Shown here piece after piece: positions 5,286 through 50,835 of a stretch of DNA of 64,000 nt. The DNA comes from Candidatus Falkowbacteria bacterium. Its GTDB lineage: Bacteria > Patescibacteriota > Patescibacteriia > XYB2-FULL-38-15. Both the position numbers and the translations under genes were made by a program. Position 1 is the first letter of the stretch; the number at the start of each line of letters is the position of its first letter. The notes beneath the pieces were generated by a model. That model did no database searches, was not told the origin of the DNA, and saw nothing but the letters and a program-made list of their open reading frames with translations. The DNA is taken from NCBI GenBank assembly GCA_016214745.1, contig JACRNW010000012.1, positions 4,368-68,367 of the forward strand, in the 5' to 3' direction.

Positions 5286-7637
5286 ATGAACAAAATCGCA
5301 AACATTTGCGACAAAGTTCTAAAGGCCTCTCTTTATCTTTTGGTCTTTGCTTTGCCGCTCTTCTTTCTTCCTTGGACTTTTGAAGCCCTGGATTTTAACA
5401 AACAAAATTTACTGATTATTTTGACTTTGTTCGCTGGATTGGCTTGGCTCGGGAAAATGGTGGCTTCAAGGCAGGTTGTTTTGCGCCGCAGTTTTTTGAA
5501 TGTGTTGATTTTGCTGTATGTTGTGATTTATACTCTGGCGACAATTTTTTCATTGGACTCCATCAGAAGTTTTATCGGCGCTTCGGGTTTGGAAAAAGAG
5601 GGGCTTGTGACCGTGCTTTGTTTTGTTGTTCTTTATTTTGTCATTATCAACAATTTCCGCGACATAAAGGCGGTTAAAAATTTACTCTATTCATATATTT
5701 TAGGCGCGGGACTTGTAACTGTCTGGACACTTATCGCTTTTTTGGGAGTACTGCCGGCTATTCTTGTTCCCAGTCAGGCGTTAAATCCGGTCGGGACACT
5801 TAATAGTTTGGGAATATTTTTAGGAGCCGCGTTTGTTTTGCTTTGTCCATTATTTTTGGGAGCGGAAACGGAAAAAGCGGCAGCCAGCAAGAAAAATTTA
5901 ATTATGAAAATTGTGATGGCTGTTTTTGCCGCTCTTGCTTTATTCCTTTTAGCGACGATTGATAATTGGACTGTTTGGGCGATTTTTACGCCAGCCGTTG
6001 CATTGATTTTGGCTTTTGTCATTATTCGGGCTCATGAAGTTAAAAATTTAGGATGGTTGGCTCTTCCCATGGCGGCTTTTGTTGTGACGGTTCTACTGTT
6101 CTTCATAAATACTCCGATTGTCACGCGGCTGCCGGCGGAAATTATGCCGTCTTTTTCCGCGAGCGCGGGAATTGCCAGGCAGACACTGCGGGAAGCTCCG
6201 CTTCTTGGTTCTGGGCCAAGCACATTTGTTTTTGATTATGCTAAATTTAAACCGGCCGGAGTAAATGAAACACAGCTTTGGGACATTAAATTTGATCGTT
6301 CCGCTTCAAGGGTTCTGACCATGCTTACAACTACCGGGCTTTTTGGAATTATTTCATGGTTATTTCTGATCATCTTTCTGGCGGTTCAAACCGTCTTTAA
6401 TTTGATCAAGGAAAAATCCGGAGCGTTATGGCTGAATCAGCTGGCCGTGGGCTCTGCTTGGTTTTTACTTTTGATCGCCAAATTTCTTTATTCTTCAAAT
6501 TTAACTTTAGAATTTTCATTTTGGATATTGACGGCTATTCTGATTGTCATGACTTCGCATAAGTTCTGGGAAATTTCCCTTGGCAGCGCGCCGCGCATTT
6601 CTTTGATTCTGTCATTTCTTCTTGCCCTTGGTATGATTTTGGCGATTTCCTCTTTTTATCTTATCGGTGAACGCTACGCGGCCGACGCGAGATTTGTCCA
6701 GGCGCTTTCATCCATAAATCGGGGAGAAGATTTGAGCAAAACGACGGAACTTTTTAACAGCGCCGCATCGCTAAATCAACGAAACGACGTTTACCTTAGA
6801 AATTTGGCGCAGAGTTTACAGGCGCAAATTAATCAAGAATTAGCGGCAACGCCGAATGAAGAGCGCGCGAAAAAAATTCAGGAATTGGTAGCAGCGGATA
6901 TTAATGTGGCAAAAAGAGCCACTGAACTTTCTCCCAAAAATTCAGCGAATTGGGCGACGTTAGCTTCAATTTATCAGACAGTCATGCCGCTTATCCAGGG
7001 GTCTAGCGAATGGGCCATTAGTTCTTGGCAGAAAGCGATTGAACTTGAGCCGGGGAATCCATACTTTTACACTGAACTGGGAAAAACTTATGCGAGCATG
7101 GCCGATATTCTTTCCACCGGTCTTCAGTCAAGTGACGAAAAAGTAAAAGCTGACGCTGAAACAAAAATTAAAGAAAATTTAGCTAAAGCAGAAGAGCAAC
7201 TTAGCAAGGCCATTGAAGTTAAGGCAGATTATGCACCAGCCCATTTTGAATTGGCGCTTGTTTACAGCCGGCAAGGGAAAATAAAAGAAGCGATTAGTAA
7301 ATTGGAAGCAATTAAAGCAGATTTGCCGAACGATATTGGCGTGGCTTTTCAGTTGGGACTTCTCTATGCGCAAAATAAAGAATTGGATAAAGCGGTTACC
7401 GAACTTTCCCGGGCCGTGGAATTGGCGCCAAACTTTGCCAACGCGCGATGGTATTTGGCGGCAATTTACGAAGAGCAGGGCAAAAAGGATTTAGCCCTCG
7501 CTCAATTGGAAGAAATTTTGAAAACTAATCCGGAGAATGAAACCGTTAAGCAAAAAATAGACGCATTAAAAAATCCGCCAGCCAGAGAGTCTGAGCCGCT
7601 ACCAACTCCAATTCCCGAGGCGGCTCCGGCGCAATAA
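5286..7637 (+). CDS. Polytopic membrane protein (O-antigen-ligase-like N-terminal region) with C-terminal TPR repeats.
   Basis: The first 470 aa contain about 10 hydrophobic helices. The C-terminus has TPR-like repeats (AHFELALVYSRQGKIKEAI, AFQLGLLYAQNKELDKAV, ARWYLAAIYEEQGK). Confidence 0.55.
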   Translation: MNKIANICDKVLKASLYLLVFALPLFFLPWTFEALDFNKQNLLIILTLFAGLAWLGKMVASRQVVLRRSFLNVLILLYVVIYTLATIFSLDSIRSFIGASGLEKEGLVTVLCFVVLYFVIINNFRDIKAVKNLLYSYILGAGLVTVWTLIAFLGVLPAILVPSQALNPVGTLNSLGIFLGAAFVLLCPLFLGAETEKAAASKKNLIMKIVMAVFAALALFLLATIDNWTVWAIFTPAVALILAFVIIRAHEVKNLGWLALPMAAFVVTVLLFFINTPIVTRLPAEIMPSFSASAGIARQTLREAPLLGSGPSTFVFDYAKFKPAGVNETQLWDIKFDRSASRVLTMLTTTGLFGIISWLFLIIFLAVQTVFNLIKEKSGALWLNQLAVGSAWFLLLIAKFLYSSNLTLEFSFWILTAILIVMTSHKFWEISLGSAPRISLILSFLLALGMILAISSFYLIGERYAADARFVQALSSINRGEDLSKTTELFNSAASLNQRNDVYLRNLAQSLQAQINQELAATPNEERAKKIQELVAADINVAKRATELSPKNSANWATLASIYQTVMPLIQGSSEWAISSWQKAIELEPGNPYFYTELGKTYASMADILSTGLQSSDEKVKADAETKIKENLAKAEEQLSKAIEVKADYAPAHFELALVYSRQGKIKEAISKLEAIKADLPNDIGVAFQLGLLYAQNKELDKAVTELSRAVELAPNFANARWYLAAIYEEQGKKDLALAQLEEILKTNPENETVKQKIDALKNPPARESEPLPTPIPEAAPAQ

Positions 7638-10190: not shown

Positions 10191-10254
10191 AATCCTCTGG
10201 TTTATATGCGAAAGTAAAGAGTTATTTAGTTTTGTTTTATTATATCACATCTTA

Positions 10255-10382
10255 CCCCGTTAGAAGTCCTCCGCGTAAAAATTTAATAAATTTTTACGCC
10301 CAAAAGTCATCGTCGTTTTTAAAAAAAATATTCCAACTCCGGCTGTCGTTTAAAGATAAATTAAACGGACTTCTAACGAGGC
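10255..10382 (+). promoter_or_regulatory. Copy 1 of a structured leader-element family (CCCCGTTAGAAGTCC ... GGACTTCTAACGAGG), oriented toward rpsF.
   Basis: Terminal inverted repeats enclose an AT-rich hairpin (gcgtaaaaattt-aataa-atttttacgc). Homologous copies are at 17418..17545 and 49405..49545. Confidence 0.6.
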
Positions 10383-10513
10383 TTGCACAATTTTTAGGGT
10401 TATGCTAAACTTTTAGAAACTTTATTATCAAGCGAGCGAGAGAAATGAAATTTATTTCATTTCCGAGCGAGCGCAGATAACAGGGATTTAATGCCCTTTA
10501 TTTAAATAGTTTT

Positions 10514-15234: not shown

Positions 15235-17419
15235 GATTATCGTTATTATCGTTGTAGGAATTTGTCGGAGCCGCTACGCCGGCAATCAAAATATCGCGAG
15301 GTTTGGCGCCGTCAGCTGGTCCAATTATACCTTGTTCTTCCATAAGATCAAGCAAACGGGCAGCTCTTGCGTAGCCGACCTTAAGCCGTCGTTGAAGAAG
15401 GGAAGCCGAAGCCTTGCCGGCTTGGACAATAACTTCTTTGGCGTCGGAAAGCAATTCATCATCAGAATCGTTTCCCAAATCAAGTCCGGGGATAGAAACG
15501 CCGAACGTTGGTTTTTGAGTAACTTCTTCCAGATATTCCGGCTCGTCTTGATTTTTTAAATAATCAATAACTTTTTTAATTTCATGATCGCGGACGAGTG
15601 CTCCCTGCAGACGTTTCGGTTTGCCAAGATCCGGGCAAGTGTAAAGCATATCGCCGCGGCCTAAAAGTTTTTCTGCGCCGGAAGTGTCCAAAATTGTTCG
15701 CGAATCAGTGTTTGAGGCCACGGCAAAGGCGATGCGGGTTGTGATGTTGGCTTTAATTAAACCGGTAATAATATTAACGGACGGTCGTTGAGTGGCCAAA
15801 ATCAAGTGAATCCCTACGGCGCGCGCCATCTGAGCCAAACGGATAATTGCCGCTTCAACTTCCGCGGCGGCAACGACCATTAGGTCCGCTAATTCGTCAA
15901 TAATCAGAACGAGGTAAGGCATTTTCTCACCGGTTTCTCGGTTGAAAGCGCCAATGTCGCGTTTGCCATGTTTGGAAAGAAGTTCAAAGCGGCGATCCAT
16001 TTCGCCAATGACCCATTTTAGGGCGTTTACGGTTTTGACTGTGTCAGTAATAACCGGCGTCAAAAGATGCGGAATGCCGTTATAAACCGTAAATTCAACG
16101 CGCTTTGGATCAACCATAATCATCCGCAAATCATCTGGACTATTTTGGTAAAGCAAACTGACAATAATAGTATTTAAGCAAACACTTTTGCCAGAACCAG
16201 TCGATCCGGCCACGAGCAAATGCGGCATTTTTCCCAAATCGGAAACCCAAACTTTTCCCGAGACATCCTTACCAAGCGCCACCGTGAGATTAGTTTTTCT
16301 TTGTTTAAATTCTTGCGCCCGCAAAATTTCTTTCAAATTGACCGCGGCAACTTTTTGGTTTGGCACTTCAATGCCGACAAGTGATTTGCCGGGAATTGGC
16401 GCCTCAATTCTGATGGGATGAGCAGCCAGAGCCAGAGCTAAATCATTATGAAGACTTGTAATTTTAGTGAGCTTGACGCCGTCGGCCGGTTTTAAAGTGT
16501 ATTGAGTTACGGTTGGTCCAACCGAGATGTCTCCCATTTCCACAATAATACCGAAATTTTCCAAAGTTTTTTGAATAATATTCATTTGAGTTTTGATGTC
16601 GCCGCTTGTCGGTTTTTCAGATTGGTCATCAAGTAAATCTAATGGTAAATCAATTTTTTTTCGCGCAACCTTAACAATCATTGGGCTTGCTTCCGGCAGG
16701 GCGGATTGGTCCGATGTCTCGGCCGGCAAATTTTTTGCCTCAAAAGCAGGAGCAGTCGCGGGAGCCGCTTCAGCGGGTTCTTGTTCGCCTTCTCCATCAG
16801 CCGGAGATTCTTCAGGGCGGTCGTTAAATTTCATGCCCAAAAATAAAAGTTTGATATTTTGATAAATTTTTTTCCAGAAACTTCCTTTTTCCGCTATTTT
16901 ATGGAGCGAGGTATTGAAGGTTAAGAGAATTGAAGAAATAAAAACAGCCAGAAGAATTAGAGTAGTGGCCACTGATCCGAGAGAAGTTAAAAGCGGATAA
17001 GAAAGAGTGAGGCCCAAATATCCGCCGCCCTCGGAAAGTCCGGTGAAGGAAAATGGATCATTATAAGAAAAGCTAAGATGGAGCAAGCTTTCGGTTGAAA
17101 GAATTAAGAAAAAAAGACCAATGTAATTTGAAGCCCCAAGTTCGTATTTTTCTCCGTTCAAAATAATGTAGCCAAGCGCCAAAAAAATTATGGGGATGGC
17201 AAAACGGCCTAAACCAAAAAAGGAAGCCAGAGCTTTTTCCAGATGTTCTCCGGCCCCGCCTGCTAAATTGAAAAGACTTAAAATACTGATTCCGGCCAAG
17301 GCGAAAAGGAAAACAATTAAAATTCCTCGCCTGGTTTCCGGATTTAACCGCGATGTTCCTCGTCGGTTGCTTTTTCGTCCCTCATTTTTCTCGTTTTTTG
17401 TATATTTGATTTTAGGCAT
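15200..17419 (-). CDS. ftsK: DNA translocase FtsK/SpoIIIE.
   Basis: It has N-terminal TM helices, a Pro/Glu-rich linker, a Walker A motif (GSTGSGKSVCLN), and a C-terminal gamma domain. Confidence 0.9.
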   Translation of the reverse strand: MPKIKYTKNEKNEGRKSNRRGTSRLNPETRRGILIVFLFALAGISILSLFNLAGGAGEHLEKALASFFGLGRFAIPIIFLALGYIILNGEKYELGASNYIGLFFLILSTESLLHLSFSYNDPFSFTGLSEGGGYLGLTLSYPLLTSLGSVATTLILLAVFISSILLTFNTSLHKIAEKGSFWKKIYQNIKLLFLGMKFNDRPEESPADGEGEQEPAEAAPATAPAFEAKNLPAETSDQSALPEASPMIVKVARKKIDLPLDLLDDQSEKPTSGDIKTQMNIIQKTLENFGIIVEMGDISVGPTVTQYTLKPADGVKLTKITSLHNDLALALAAHPIRIEAPIPGKSLVGIEVPNQKVAAVNLKEILRAQEFKQRKTNLTVALGKDVSGKVWVSDLGKMPHLLVAGSTGSGKSVCLNTIIVSLLYQNSPDDLRMIMVDPKRVEFTVYNGIPHLLTPVITDTVKTVNALKWVIGEMDRRFELLSKHGKRDIGAFNRETGEKMPYLVLIIDELADLMVVAAAEVEAAIIRLAQMARAVGIHLILATQRPSVNIITGLIKANITTRIAFAVASNTDSRTILDTSGAEKLLGRGDMLYTCPDLGKPKRLQGALVRDHEIKKVIDYLKNQDEPEYLEEVTQKPTFGVSIPGLDLGNDSDDELLSDAKEVIVQAGKASASLLQRRLKVGYARAARLLDLMEEQGIIGPADGAKPRDILIAGVAAPTNSYNDNNDNLAEEEDPEENA

Positions 17420-17545
17420 ACCCCGTTAGAAGTCTGCTTTTGAGCAGATTAAGTAATCAAAGGTAAAATGGATGTATTTTTATCATTACCCCGTTTCGCT
17501 GTAAGCGAAAAATTTTTACGGAAAATTTTTCGCCAAGGATTTCTA
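17418..17545 (-). promoter_or_regulatory. Copy 2 of the structured leader element. Its 3' arm directly abuts the ftsK start codon.
   Basis: The minus strand reads CCCCGTTAGAAATCCTTGGCG-[cgaaaaatt..aatttttcg hairpin]-...GACTTCTAACGGGGT-ATG. Confidence 0.6.
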
Positions 17546-17721
17546 ACGGGGCATACCCCCTTAAATAATTGATAATTTGTTCTTAAATTATAGTATTATT
17601 GGGTAGAAAAGTAAATCCCCACACCAACAATTGTTGGTGTGGGGATAAACCCCTTCTGTCAATACCGAAACATTGGTGTCTATCTCTTGACAAGAGCATG
17701 ATTATTTCTTAAAATAACAAA

Positions 17722-48037: not shown

Positions 48038-49399
48038 TTATTTTATGTAATTTAACGGATTATACACTTTGCCATTAATTCTAACTTCAAAGTGCAAGTG
48101 AGGGCCAGTGGAACGGCCGGTTGAACCCTCTAATCCGATTTTTTGTCCTCTTTCAATAGTGTCTCCATCTTCAACCAGAATTGTAGTCATGTGTCCGTAA
48201 AGAGTTACTACTCCTCCGCCGTGATTAACCATGACGTTATGTCCGTAACCGGAGTTCAGATACTGAACGCGAATAACCACGCCGTCATCGGCGGCAAGAA
48301 TAGGTGTGCCGGCTGGGCAGGCGATATCAACGCCGGTGTGGCGCCAGCCAAAATATTGAGAAATGCGGCTGCAGCCATTGGGCCAGAGCATTTTTCCGCT
48401 CGTAGGAACGGGACCATACGAAGGAATATTCACGGTATTTCTGCCGGCGACAGATGGTCGCGGGGCCGGAGCTGGTGCCGGAACCTTTCCGTCCGGTACT
48501 ATTATATATTCGCCGACTTTGATATCACTTGCATCGGGTAATGCGTTAAATTCCAAAACTTTTTCCGCATCGGTGTTGTAGTATTTAGCAATTTTTTCTA
48601 CAGTGTCGCCGGTTTTTACTTGATGCAGTACGCCGCTCGTCGGCAAAATTACGAGTTTGTCGCCCGGACGGATTGTACTCGTGCTCGTGAGTTTGTTGGC
48701 CCAGAGGATCGTGGTTACGCCGATATTAAATTTTTCCGCGATAGTGCCAATCGTGTCGCCGCCTTCAACTTGATATTCAATGACTTTGGTTCGGCTGTTG
48801 GAATTTATACTTGAAGGAAGATTGGGGTTTAAAAGTGTGCTGTTGTCTCCGATTGAAGCGATTGGCAAATCGCCGGAAAAGTCGTCATTCCCCAGAGCTG
48901 CAGCTGGCAGCGGCATGCCGATATCAGATTCCAAATAACTTACAGTTTTGATGTTACTTTGGTCAGCCGTTTCTTGGATGAAATCATTTAATTCTGAGTC
49001 GCTGTTGTAGGATAAAGTGTAGAGGATACTTTTTTGACCGATCTGTTCAGAATTTTCGAGCGAGGCCGCTTTGGCATTTAAACTTGAAGCCACGGAGAGA
49101 AGAGTAATTAAGGCTATAACCGTGTGGGTGATATAGCGGCGGGTGAAGGGATAAATAATTTTAACTTTAATCGGCGCGTAAATTTTATCCCACCAGCGAA
49201 TTTTTATAAAAAGGGCGATTTTGTAGATTTTTACCGCAAATGAAAAAAGGACAGTTTTACCGAACCATTGTAATGGTTTTGCGACTGTCCAAGTCAGGAT
49301 AAAAACGATTAAATTTTTTAAATGAATCAGACCGCCCAAAAAGCCAACCAGAATCTTGATGCCCATCTTTTTCAGCAAGAATAAAGCATTTTGTGCCAT
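48038..49399 (-). CDS. LysM-domain M23 family peptidoglycan endopeptidase.
   Basis: Two LysM repeats (GDTIGTIAEKFNIGVTTILWANKL; GDTVEKIAKYYNTDAEKVLEFN). The M23 motifs are HTGVDIA and GSTGRSTGPHLHFEV. Confidence 0.85.
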   Translation of the reverse strand: MAQNALFLLKKMGIKILVGFLGGLIHLKNLIVFILTWTVAKPLQWFGKTVLFSFAVKIYKIALFIKIRWWDKIYAPIKVKIIYPFTRRYITHTVIALITLLSVASSLNAKAASLENSEQIGQKSILYTLSYNSDSELNDFIQETADQSNIKTVSYLESDIGMPLPAAALGNDDFSGDLPIASIGDNSTLLNPNLPSSINSNSRTKVIEYQVEGGDTIGTIAEKFNIGVTTILWANKLTSTSTIRPGDKLVILPTSGVLHQVKTGDTVEKIAKYYNTDAEKVLEFNALPDASDIKVGEYIIVPDGKVPAPAPAPRPSVAGRNTVNIPSYGPVPTSGKMLWPNGCSRISQYFGWRHTGVDIACPAGTPILAADDGVVIRVQYLNSGYGHNVMVNHGGGVVTLYGHMTTILVEDGDTIERGQKIGLEGSTGRSTGPHLHFEVRINGKVYNPLNYIK

Positions 49400-49404
49400 A
49401 CACC

Positions 49405-49545
49405 CCGTTAGAAATCTGTTAAGAATTAAATTACAGATTAAGCGAGAAAAGGTGCGTTTTTATTTAAGTCCCGTCAAAACGGACGCAGAGAAAAATCGTT
49501 AAATTTTTCTCTGCCAAGGATTTCTAACGGGGTAAATAATTCAAT
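49405..49545 (-). promoter_or_regulatory. Copy 3 of the structured leader element. Its 3' arm abuts the M23 peptidase start codon.
   Basis: The minus strand reads CCCCGTTAGAAATCCTTGGCAG-[cagagaaaaat..atttttctctg hairpin]-...GATTTCTAACGGGGTGT-ATG. Confidence 0.6.
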
Positions 49546-49593
49546 TGTAATCATACCAGAAAGGGGGTGGCGTGTCAATCTCGGCGACAAGCC

Positions 49594-49650
49594 GGGTTGA
49601 CAAAATGGTTAAAATGTGTTATTCTAAATTGTTAGTAAAATTGGTCTTTT
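49594..49650 (+). promoter_or_regulatory. Conserved promoter-leader module (ggTTGACAaaatggttaaaatgtgtTATTCTaaattgttagtaaa).
   Basis: Paralogous to 4333 and 37463. Confidence 0.55.
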
Positions 49651-49810
49651 AAACTTATTCTTAGCCTTATTTTGGCGGTTTTATGACCATCAAAACAAGG
49701 CTGGGAGTGGTTTCCCGGCTGTTCTTGCCTTCCGGCGAATCGGACAAGGTGTCTGGCAATGGTGCCGAGTGCTTTGTTTGACTACCGGCGGGTGAGGGAG
49801 GAAAGAGACG

Positions 49811-50479
49811 ATGGCAAGGGCGACGATTAGTCAGGTGCACGAACTGGGGGAGCAGATCAGGCGCGGGCAGATTCCGGCGTGGAAGGTGAGGATCGTTTTC
49901 GGGCTTTCCGAAAAGGAAACGGAAACGCCGTTCCACATGTTCCTCAGCCTGGTAAAGGCCGCCAAGGCCGAGATCGTCTCGGCCGAGCAGATGCAGATGA
50001 TCCTCGAGGGAAGGTGCGAATCCTTCGGGATTTTCAAGGTGACGGTGGATTACGGTCTCACTCTCTCCGAGATGATCGCCGCTGGCCGTTATGACGTCGT
50101 AGACAGCTACATCACTACCGAGTATTTCCCTGTGACCGGCAAGGGGAGGGTAGAGCGCGAGGTCGTCGCGGTTTACCTGAATCGTGAAGTAAAGGACGGT
50201 GATGTCATCGCCGAGCTCGCCCTTCGCGGTTTCCGGCCCGCCAAGATCGAGGATCTTCTTGCTTTGAGCGCACTGCATCCCGATTTTCGGGAAGGATTTC
50301 CGACGACGGTGCTTGGTCCTAAGGGAGATCTGAGCGGTGATCGCGGCTGTTTCTACACGTGTCACGGTCTGACTGAGGGCATGTGGGTCTTGGCTCACGG
50401 CTGGTTCAATCTCCGCCTGTGCGTTCCCTGCTGGGGGAAGTCCTGTCGGTTTCTGGCCGTCCGCAAGGACGCTGCGTAG
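49811..50479 (+). CDS. High-GC hypothetical protein (222 aa).
   Basis: SD gagggagga. About 60% GC. C-terminal Cys/Trp-rich. No motif was recognised. Confidence 0.45.
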   Translation: MARATISQVHELGEQIRRGQIPAWKVRIVFGLSEKETETPFHMFLSLVKAAKAEIVSAEQMQMILEGRCESFGIFKVTVDYGLTLSEMIAAGRYDVVDSYITTEYFPVTGKGRVEREVVAVYLNREVKDGDVIAELALRGFRPAKIEDLLALSALHPDFREGFPTTVLGPKGDLSGDRGCFYTCHGLTEGMWVLAHGWFNLRLCVPCWGKSCRFLAVRKDAA

Positions 50480-50698
50480 TTCGAACCTCATCCTGACACT
50501 TTCGGCGTAAGCCGAGAGAGTCGGGTGGAACGGACCTGCTGACTCCTACCTTTGGTGTAACAACCGGGGTAGGAGTCTTTTTTATTTCGCGAAAACGCAA
50601 AAGAAACAAAGACGCAAAAACCCCAACTGCAAGTTTTGAATTTTGGTCATTGGGATTTATTTGGAATTTGATGTTTTGGATTTTGGATTTTTGATATC

Positions 50699-50752
50699 GT
50701 CCCCCTCACCTCAATCCTCTCCCGCAAGGGGAGAGGAGGAAATTGTGGGGAT
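50699..50752. repeat. GC-rich hairpin repeat, copy R-g. It is preceded by a ttttggat tandem repeat at 50641..50695.
   Basis: The sequence is ccccctcacctcaatcctctcccgcaaggggagaggagg. Confidence 0.7.
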
Positions 50753-50835
50753 TTATTCTCTTTACAATTTTTATATTTTAATGTAAATTTAACAAATAAC
50801 TTTTAACAATTAACCGTTAACTATTAACTAATTGT

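Follow-up and report, generated by a model that had tools for sequence, protein, structure and literature searches.

Short inverted-repeat insertions at gene starts in a Candidatus Falkowbacteria contig and a related 282-bp element encoding a GIY-YIG nuclease

We analyzed a stretch of 64,000 nucleotides from a Candidatus Falkowbacteria bacterium (contig JACRNW010000012.1, positions 4,368 to 68,367 of the forward strand; hereafter the window), in which a repeat of 127-131 bp without an open reading frame (ORF) is present in three copies per 64 kb. Two of them, c2 and c3, lie upstream of ftsK and of a gene for a LysM-M23 peptidase, respectively; the third, c1, lies between rpsF and a methyltransferase gene, in the intergenic region of this divergent pair. 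The window copies are insertions and not a dedicated leader RNA. That the element is inserted DNA follows from its 4-bp target site duplications (TSDs) together with the empty orthologous sites found in relatives. Probably, the window copies are transposable elements of the miniature inverted-repeat type (MITEs), that is, non-coding derivatives of a tiny mobile element whose long form encodes a GIY-YIG nuclease. This 282-bp nuclease unit is found in many uncultivated bacterial phyla and has apparently not been described; the main interest of the system appears to lie in this partner element as an extremely small mobile unit.

Three copies of one inserted element in the window

An earlier note, made from the letters of the window, had described three copies of a repeat with an internal AT-rich hairpin. 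All three exist, with limits that are slightly shifted to those listed below, and each contains the hairpin, which lies beside one of the arms. c1, c2 and c3 share the inverted ends (CCCCGTTAGAA/TTCTAACGGGG) and a subterminal A/T hairpin, with an interior that is variable. The family form of the ends is CCCCGTTAGAA(R)TC / GAYTTCTAACGGGG, and the right arm of c1 has one mismatch (CCTCGTTAGAA on the minus strand). When up to one mismatch is allowed, the 11-mer CCCCGTTAGAA occurs six times in the window, and these six occurrences form the three inverted pairs; the mean in shuffled sequences was 1.18, and six or more were reached in 0 of 100 shuffles. Pairing of the arms spans 11-15 bp, and each copy is predicted to fold into a closing stem of this length that encloses two internal hairpins, with a stability that exceeds that of shuffles in all three copies and on both strands (z = -6.0 to -6.8). 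Alignment of the copies shows conservation of the arms, a short junction and the A/T hairpin only, the interior being about 50% different. The CTTGGC (GCCAAG) junction that had been ascribed to all three copies is present in c2 and c3 and absent from c1. In window coordinates c1 is oriented opposite to c2 and c3, and it is an older, degenerate copy. The features of the three copies are as follows.

17421-17551, minus strand (gene sense): c2 (131 bp), a non-autonomous element lying between the ribosome-binding site and the ATG of ftsK
17552-17555: upstream copy of the c2 TSD, CATA on the plus strand and TATG in gene sense; relatives have a single TATG
17417-17420: downstream copy of the c2 TSD, which includes the ftsK start ATG (17419-17417, minus strand)
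17421-17434: terminal arm of c2 at the ftsK side, CCCCGTTAGAAGTC; pairs with 17538-17551
17538-17551: terminal arm of c2 at the promoter side, GATTTCTAACGGGG on the plus strand
17505-17533: subterminal A/T hairpin of c2, GCGAAAAATTTTT-ACG-GAAAATTTTTCGC
17587-17615, minus strand: promoter-like site of the host for ftsK, TTTACT-17-TATAAT, conserved in relatives without the element
49403-49532, minus strand: c3 (130 bp), downstream of the host promoter and preceding the ATG of the LysM-M23 peptidase gene
49399-49402: gene-side copy of the c3 TSD, TACA on the plus strand, matching 49533-49536 at three of four positions; the peptidase ATG (49399-49397, minus strand) takes its A from base 49399
49533-49536: promoter-side copy of the c3 TSD, TAAA on the plus strand
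49485-49514: subterminal A/T hairpin of c3, from folding and family comparison
49550-49578, minus strand: promoter-like site of the host for the peptidase gene, TTGACA-17-TATGAT, conserved in relatives without c3
10255-10381, plus strand: c1 (127 bp), with right arm TTCTAACGAGG and A/T hairpin at 10273-10299
10251-10254: left copy of the c1 TSD, CTTA, matching CTTG at 10382-10385 at three of four positions
10382-10385: right copy of the c1 TSD, CTTG, followed by CACA; compare locus L068, where CTTG precedes the element and CTTGACAC follows it

L numbers denote loci of relatives, which are stretches of about 8 kb and together comprise about 1.26 Mb. The spread of the element was determined by scanning one genome per species with the pattern CCCCGTTAGAA-N(95-125)-TTCTAACGGGG, in which the 11-nt ends are fixed. 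At least 120 loci matched, with up to three copies per 8-kb locus, and these belong to many lineages of Patescibacteria and to Deltaproteobacteria/Thermodesulfobacteriota, Planctomycetota, Omnitrophota and Nitrospirota metagenome-assembled genomes. The interiors of the elements fall into several unrelated classes, which are AT-rich in Patescibacteria and GC-rich in the other phyla. Perfect 4-bp direct repeats flank 94 of the 131 elements whose flanks were printed. Counted together with their reverse complements, the duplicated sequences of these MITEs are TAAA (33), TGAA (28), TATG (13), TCAA (11) and a few others. In the window the duplication of c2 is perfect, CATA being present on either side, and those of c3 and c1 match at three of the four positions.

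Orthologues of the window genes were reached by homologue searches with the FtsK and peptidase proteins, and empty orthologous sites were examined for c2 and c3. The ftsK site is empty in L213 and L214/L215 (FtsK 86-88% identical), in which promoter and leader are as in the window and a single TATG is present. The empty site reads ..TATAATTTAAGAACAAATTATCATTTATTTAGGGGGTATGCCAAAA.. in relatives (..TTATTTAGGGGGTATGCCAAAA.. in L214, and similar in L213). In L216, whose FtsK is 93% identical, the TATG of the ftsK site is occupied by an element with a very different interior. The peptidase site is empty in four relatives, L217-L220, where it reads TTGACA-17-TATAAT..GAATTATATATGGCACAA... Together, the TSDs and the empty sites of c2 and c3 support the MITE, which was one of the two possibilities considered in the earlier note.

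The promoter-like site of ftsK lies upstream of c2 and is conserved in element-free relatives, and therefore ftsK transcripts would read through c2. In agreement with the idea that the repeat donates 5′ untranslated regions (UTRs), the element now constitutes most of the 5′ UTR of both ftsK and the peptidase gene; c2 and c3 became these UTRs because they inserted there, not by design. The 3′ arm lies next to start codons because the start codon, or part of it, is contained in the 4 bp that are duplicated. An ATG does follow the arm closely in both cases, not directly as had been stated: it is preceded by T in c2 (GGGGTATG, ftsK) and by TGT in c3 (GGGGTGTATG, LysM-M23). The identities that had been guessed for the neighboring genes (FtsK, LysM plus M23 peptidase and ribosomal protein S6) were all recovered by a Pfam domain search. 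A database protein listed under Candidatus Falkowbacteria is 100% identical to the FtsK of the window.

Some further observations concern the surroundings of c3 and the ftsK site. The distance between the H+-pyrophosphatase gene and the LysM-M23 gene (49534-50835 region) is 1436 nt in the window versus 150-220 nt in relatives. The additional spacer by c3 includes a 274-aa ORF (49667-50491, minus strand) without a Pfam match, and this extra DNA looks like a second, larger insertion. The M23 peptidase (48038-49399, minus strand) has 442 aa in the public record versus 453 aa in more than 15 orthologues, which begin at the ATG that touches c3 in the window; the c3 insertion seems to have misled the calling of its start codon, leaving the NCBI protein 11 residues short. 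At the ftsK site, the elements of L216 (1370-1499) and of the window (17421-17551) sit at the same TATG and have the ends and the A/T hairpin in common, the other half being almost wholly different. Rather than slow drift, this pattern suggests that copies were replaced or recombined with one another. L216 contains a second, degenerate copy (1176-1306) at the -35 box, TTTAC(T), of the promoter of ftsK, a position that holds the terminator hairpin of the upstream gene in the window and in other relatives.

An element of about 282 bp that encodes a GIY-YIG nuclease

Locus L032 contains a MITE together with an element of 282 bp (6221-6502), 470 bp from it, that has the same ends and a TGAA duplication. 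The single ORF of this long form, which takes up nearly its whole length, starts at a host ATG (ATG AA/C CCC GTT AGA AGT .., encoding MNPVRS..; the slash marks the junction) and stops at GAC TTC TAA within the right end, where the host restart is G/TG. Its product is a GIY-YIG nuclease (PF01541, E=2e-17) with one Pfam domain. A database search gave 956 homologues, mostly of 86-93 aa (family range 85-93 aa), which begin with MNPVRS/N or with a host-derived extension that has PVRS at its end, and whose C-termini are ..FFFAHDF or ..GF. Since the homologues begin with PVRS.. and end with ..DF/GF-stop, the reading frame of the nuclease extends into both ends of the element, the left end encoding P-V-R-S and the right end D/G-F-stop.

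We then considered 92 nuclease loci that had been fetched by protein alone. Both ends are present in 90 of them, 280-286 bp apart (318 bp in two cases), and a perfect 4-bp duplication is present in 65 of these 90. Removal of duplicates left 68 unique sites, of which 48 have a perfect TSD (TGAA 21, TTGA 9, TATG 6, TAAA 4, TCAA 3); this spectrum is that of the MITEs. Moreover, at least 10 MITE-size copies with duplications were found on the contigs picked by nuclease protein alone. The ORF ends at the TAA of the right end in 58 of the 68 sites. It begins at a host ATG in 13, and in 31 it is provided with its own ATG, which lies 15-19 nt inside the left end; a frameshift is present in about 10 copies. 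Full-length copies that lack a start codon of their own are numerous and use a host ATG (A+TGAA). The host start is rebuilt 4-6 nt past the nuclease stop, either from the last G of the element plus the duplicated TG or from the duplicated TATG. At TATG sites the layout is a host ATG CCC CGT TAG, the nuclease ATG 9 nt on, and TAA CGGGGT followed by the ATG of the host gene. In L121 the element is located within the ATGA overlap of hisF-like and hisH-like genes, and the HisH-like protein reads (M)KKNPEIAIIDYG from the rebuilt GTG.

Residues Y10, Y12, Y23, G25, R33, H37, N38, E69 and N83 of the nuclease are invariant. The nearest solved structures by sequence (PDB search) are those of the UPF0213 proteins BH0048 and EF2693 (UPF0213 E=1e-6) and of SLX1. 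In agreement with this, the structural model of the nuclease (mean predicted local distance difference test score 81) matches BH0048 and the SLX1 nuclease domain with template modeling scores of up to 0.65 (root-mean-square deviation 2.2 Å over 74-77 residues), and I-TevI is a more distant match. A tblastn search of the nuclease against plasmids gave no match. A small GIY-YIG ORF in L077 (7155-7373, minus strand), 40% identical to the family, is without CCCCGTTAGAA ends and sits between two direct repeats of about 60 nt that resemble pieces of a tRNA gene.

Forms smaller than the MITEs are also present. Mini forms of 29-60 bp, consisting of about two arms and a loop, have their own 4-bp duplications, and apparently the mobile unit can be as small as the hairpin itself. 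In addition, we noted a second family of hairpins of 53-59 bp with ends CCCTGTTAAATA / TATTTAACAGGG and flanks of the TTTA/TGAA type, which is probably a sister family.

L082 7333-7366, L058 7334-7365, L024 725-777 and L116 4893-4951: mini elements of 32-59 bp, each with its own 4-bp TSD; one reads TTGA/../TTGAca
L061 2036-2088, L066 5200-5252, L105 4656-4709, L188 595-650 and L031 7635-7693: second hairpin family

In L136 (1643-2059) a MITE and a full-length nuclease element are arranged head to tail with one TGAA shared between them, and in L114 (7754-7893) a TATG is shared by two elements. The duplicated target is re-used in these cases.

Insertion at gene boundaries and a proposed mechanism

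When the target is TATG, an ATG is present at both sides of the element, and c2 is such a case. When the target is A/TGAA, the TG of the downstream copy and the last G of the element form a GTG that is in frame. Counting start codons that open an ORF of at least 80 codons, we found one at -1 to +3 of one end in 40 of 132 elements (27 GTG at -1 and 11 ATG at +1). For 95 insertions the empty sites were rebuilt and compared with random positions: the first start codon of a long ORF is hit by 24 insertions versus 0.58% of random positions, and a stop codon by 13 versus 0.29%. The enrichment at starts is about ten-fold within one motif. Thus, gene starts account for 12 of 22 occupied ATGAA sites versus 6.2% of all ATGAA, and for 8 of 13 occupied TATG sites versus 5.2% of all TATG. 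Most of the other ATGAA occurrences lie within genes. Many of the TGAA sites are ATGA stop/start overlaps, in which the TGA of the upstream gene is preserved by the left copy and the start of the downstream gene is restored by the right one; TTGACA boxes account for several TCAA/TTGA sites, and other copies are located in plain intergenic DNA. Surviving insertions sit at gene boundaries, namely start or stop codons, ATGA overlaps and TTGACA boxes. Start codons need not be targeted actively, as a sequence preference (RTNAA, TATG) combined with loss of intragenic insertions can explain the enrichment.

We tentatively propose that the 280-286-bp unit may be an autonomous element of a new class. 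Its sole protein, the GIY-YIG nuclease of 85-93 aa, would recognize the hairpin or cruciform formed by the element's own ends; the unit, which would have neither a start codon nor a ribosome-binding site of its own, would plug into host starts, ATGA overlaps and -35 boxes, would hand ribosomes back to the host gene through termination and restart, and would have seeded MITEs and 30-60-bp hairpins in at least five bacterial phyla. SLX1 is a structure-selective nuclease that cuts branched DNA and, by analogy with SLX1, UPF0213 and the nuclease Ssn of Neisseria, the element's enzyme may act on the hairpin or branch point of the paired ends. We infer that mobilization is due to the encoded nuclease, which would move itself and, in trans, the MITEs, and that the 4-bp duplication would result from staggered cuts 4 nt apart. 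Expression of the host gene could be maintained as follows. Ribosomes loaded at the old ribosome-binding site would translate into the left arm and melt the stem, terminate at the TAG or TAA within the ends, and restart at the rebuilt host start. In c2, the upstream TSD opens a mini-ORF on the minus strand, ATG CCC CGT TAG (17554-17543), whose translation would free the right arm ..UAACGGGGU-AUG; this arm is one base off the native ..UAAGGGGGU-AUG.

Several points weigh against a nuclease-driven element with MITE derivatives, the main one concerning the enzyme itself. The GIY-YIG domain hydrolyzes DNA, and we know of no transposition or strand transfer by it; a 4-bp duplication is the classical mark of DDE transposases. 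No nuclease gene was detected in the window, which was the sequence searched by tblastn, and beyond the 14-15-bp ends the interiors of the MITEs have no similarity to the nuclease ORF. Full-length copies at unrelated sites are at most 92% identical, so that no very recent jump was caught, and no full-length copy was found to have an empty orthologous site. The translation relay, for its part, is suggested by the geometry of the sequence. Finally, a simple scan for a sigma-70-like promoter inside the element, which has a conserved ACGGGGTATAAT, detected none at proper spacing, and an outward internal promoter at this motif was rejected accordingly.

Alternative explanations and related systems

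The earlier note had raised the possibility that the repeat is a riboregulator, that is, a cis-acting structured leader RNA in which pairing of the arms hides the start region and which is kept for that role. Several results would be in line with this. c2 and c3 are located in the transcribed leader right before the ATG, all three copies fold strongly, and the pairing of the subterminal hairpin is kept through compensatory changes. In addition, the orientation relative to the abutted gene is biased (19 versus 7 in total; in the subfamily with GACAGAC at its end, 10 of 10), yet it is not fixed. The folding itself is not strand-specific: for 40 elements with a defined gene sense, the stability was -41.7 kcal/mol in sense and -41.1 kcal/mol in antisense (p=0.67), with 111 and 119 G-U pairs, respectively. 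Rfam covariance models at gathering score detected 4 tRNAs in the window and nothing on the elements, and there was no match on elements at E<1 in five loci. Furthermore, the TSDs and empty sites mark insertions, the element is also present at stop codons, -35 boxes and in plain intergenic DNA, its long form carries a nuclease ORF, and the interiors of copies at an orthologous site differ greatly when FtsK is 93% identical. The host genes are functionally unrelated, including hisF/hisH-like genes and many others, and the link with cell-division and wall genes that had been proposed is coincidental. A leader RNA as the primary nature of the element is thus largely refuted already and we consider it very unlikely; as a side effect, arm pairing may hide the start region. 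The stem of the subterminal A/T hairpin has a mean length of 12.3 bp versus 6.1 bp in shuffles, and 42 of 47 arms are distinct. Judging from these sequences the hairpin is maintained by compensatory change, and the constraint, being alike on both strands, fits a requirement at the DNA level.

Two further explanations accept that the copies are mobile or repeated DNA and differ in the role given to the nuclease. The copies could be ordinary MITEs of a conventional DDE transposase that makes 4-bp duplications (IS1380/piggyBac-like, IS5 or IS701), the GIY-YIG ORF being a captured passenger. Such families typically show a 4-bp duplication and ends that begin with CCC (piggyBac has the end CCCTAGAAAG and the target TTAA), and GIY-YIG enzymes are not known as transposases. 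What makes this explanation rather unlikely is that in about 1.26 Mb of loci the end pairs enclose filler or the nuclease ORF only; no DDE transposase gene was found between these ends in those loci, whole genomes not having been searched. Moreover, both ends are present at 90 of 92 nuclease loci and lie within the nuclease frame (PVRS.., ..DF-stop) in hundreds of homologues, unlike what is expected of a recent passenger. A piggyBac/IS1380-like parent was rejected on the same absence of a DDE gene between the ends, and distant end pairs that had equal flanks proved to be made up of two separate MITEs. Alternatively, the hairpins could be the recognition sites of a resident single-strand nuclease that controls incoming or recombining DNA, as in a domesticated host system like Ssn/NTS of Neisseria. 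The protein is of the same kind, a single-domain GIY-YIG nuclease of about 94 aa with hairpin repeats around its gene and genome-wide, and the published Ssn repeats likewise avoid coding regions (PMC11893778). We consider this distinctly unlikely here, given that each copy has its own TSD, orthologous sites are polymorphic, frameshifts are present in about 10 of 68 nuclease copies, the nuclease takes its start codons from the host, and the published SRM motif is unmatched. The distribution over phyla is also patchy, and GIY-YIG transfer out of Patescibacteria has been predicted (PMC12455944).

Ssn/NTS is nevertheless the closest published system. Ssn, a GIY-YIG nuclease of 94 aa with a single domain, binds to a hairpin repeat (NTS/SRM) and cleaves single-stranded DNA alongside it (PMC11893778). 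As in the element described here, there is no separate DNA-binding domain, and the gene is bracketed by inverted repeats that also occur as numerous short non-coding copies outside genes. The ssn gene is flanked by NTS repeats, and the authors liken NTS-ssnA-NTS to an insertion sequence and discuss domestication (Chenal et al., Nat Commun 2025, PMC11893778). The paper does not mention target duplication, and "transposition" appears in a cited reference only (PMC11893778). The two systems differ in that a single inverted pair spans the gene and has coding ends here, whereas a complete 20-50-nt hairpin lies on each side of ssn. TSDs, empty sites, the borrowing of start codons and a MITE form of about 130 bp are described here and not in PMC11893778. 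Our comparison was made by the published SRM motif, layout and description; the motif, HGTCWYN(0-2)YYVSBRHN(0-5)WNVSBRGN(0-2)RNCYNB, has one match in 224 elements, and 7 in 1.26 Mb versus 5 in shuffles. GC-rich copies of the Deltaproteobacteria type (L054, L056, L062 and L074) have an internal hairpin, ATTCCGGCGGGG-TTTAAT-GCCCCGCTGGAAT, which resembles the Neisseria dRS3/NTS core ATTCCC..GGGAAT; this may be a coincidence or a link to the Ssn repeats. In a study of groundwater, GIY-YIG genes were predicted to have passed horizontally from Patescibacteria to other bacteria (PMC12455944), which fits the spread of the element across phyla.

Other known repeats share part of these properties. MITEs of the Correia/NEMIS type, known from Neisseria, are similar in size (100-150 bp), inverted ends and insertion near genes. 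Correia/NEMIS elements, like ERIC, RUP and BOX, are co-transcribed with their neighbors, form long mRNA hairpins and are able to change expression. Correia elements have ends of 26 bp and a TA target duplication; to our knowledge they have no coding partner of the GIY-YIG kind and have not been reported to split or rebuild start or stop codons. REP/REPIN-RAYT and IS200/IS605-PATE, which are also cited in PMC11893778, resemble the present system in that hairpin repeats are spread by a small hairpin-recognizing enzyme and that non-coding derivatives outnumber the gene. RAYT and IS200/IS605 use a Y1 (HUH) transposase and do not duplicate the target, in contrast to the 4-bp duplication and GIY-YIG partner found here, and IS200/IS605, PATE and REP-RAYT were excluded as identities on these grounds. 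The piggyBac/IS1380 and IS5 families have in common with the element a 4-bp duplication, a T..A-rich target and ends starting CCC; the targets here differ in being non-palindromic (TGAA, TAAA, TATG), and the only ORF is that of the GIY-YIG nuclease. SLX1/UPF0213 and homing endonucleases have the catalytic fold of the element's nuclease, and the T4 seg genes, which encode free-standing GIY-YIG homing endonucleases, also sit between host genes. Homing enzymes differ by added DNA-binding domains and by spreading through repair from a homologous allele; they are without inverted ends or target duplications and leave no MITEs at unrelated sites. Integron attC sites were rejected as well, as the order of the core is reversed (5′-..GTTAGAA ... 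TTCTAAC..-3′ on both strands versus 5′-RYYYAAC ... GTTRRRY-3′) and the elements are single and located beside housekeeping genes.

No description of GIY-YIG genes bounded by inverted ends with target duplications was found in the literature searched, outside of which most subscription journals lie. A search for the 11-mers of the element returned unrelated primers only. Of the literature found on GIY-YIG combined with Patescibacteria, MITEs, duplications or inverted repeats, nothing bore on the present element except the Ssn paper and a brief reference to horizontal transfer.

If the nuclease indeed mobilizes the element, GIY-YIG would be a new enzyme class among the few transposition machineries of prokaryotes, and the lower size limit for an autonomous element would be set at about 282 bp, the smallest in cellular genomes. 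For comparison, IS200 is about 700 bp. The resemblance of Ssn to insertion sequences that has been pointed out in the literature becomes directly testable via TSDs and empty sites. In the genomes of candidate phyla, such elements could pass for conserved regulatory RNAs, and their insertions mislead start-codon calling, as exemplified by the M23 peptidase of the window. For the host, the ftsK insertion means that a parasite can occupy the start codon or the stop/start overlap of an essential gene and leave its frame intact.

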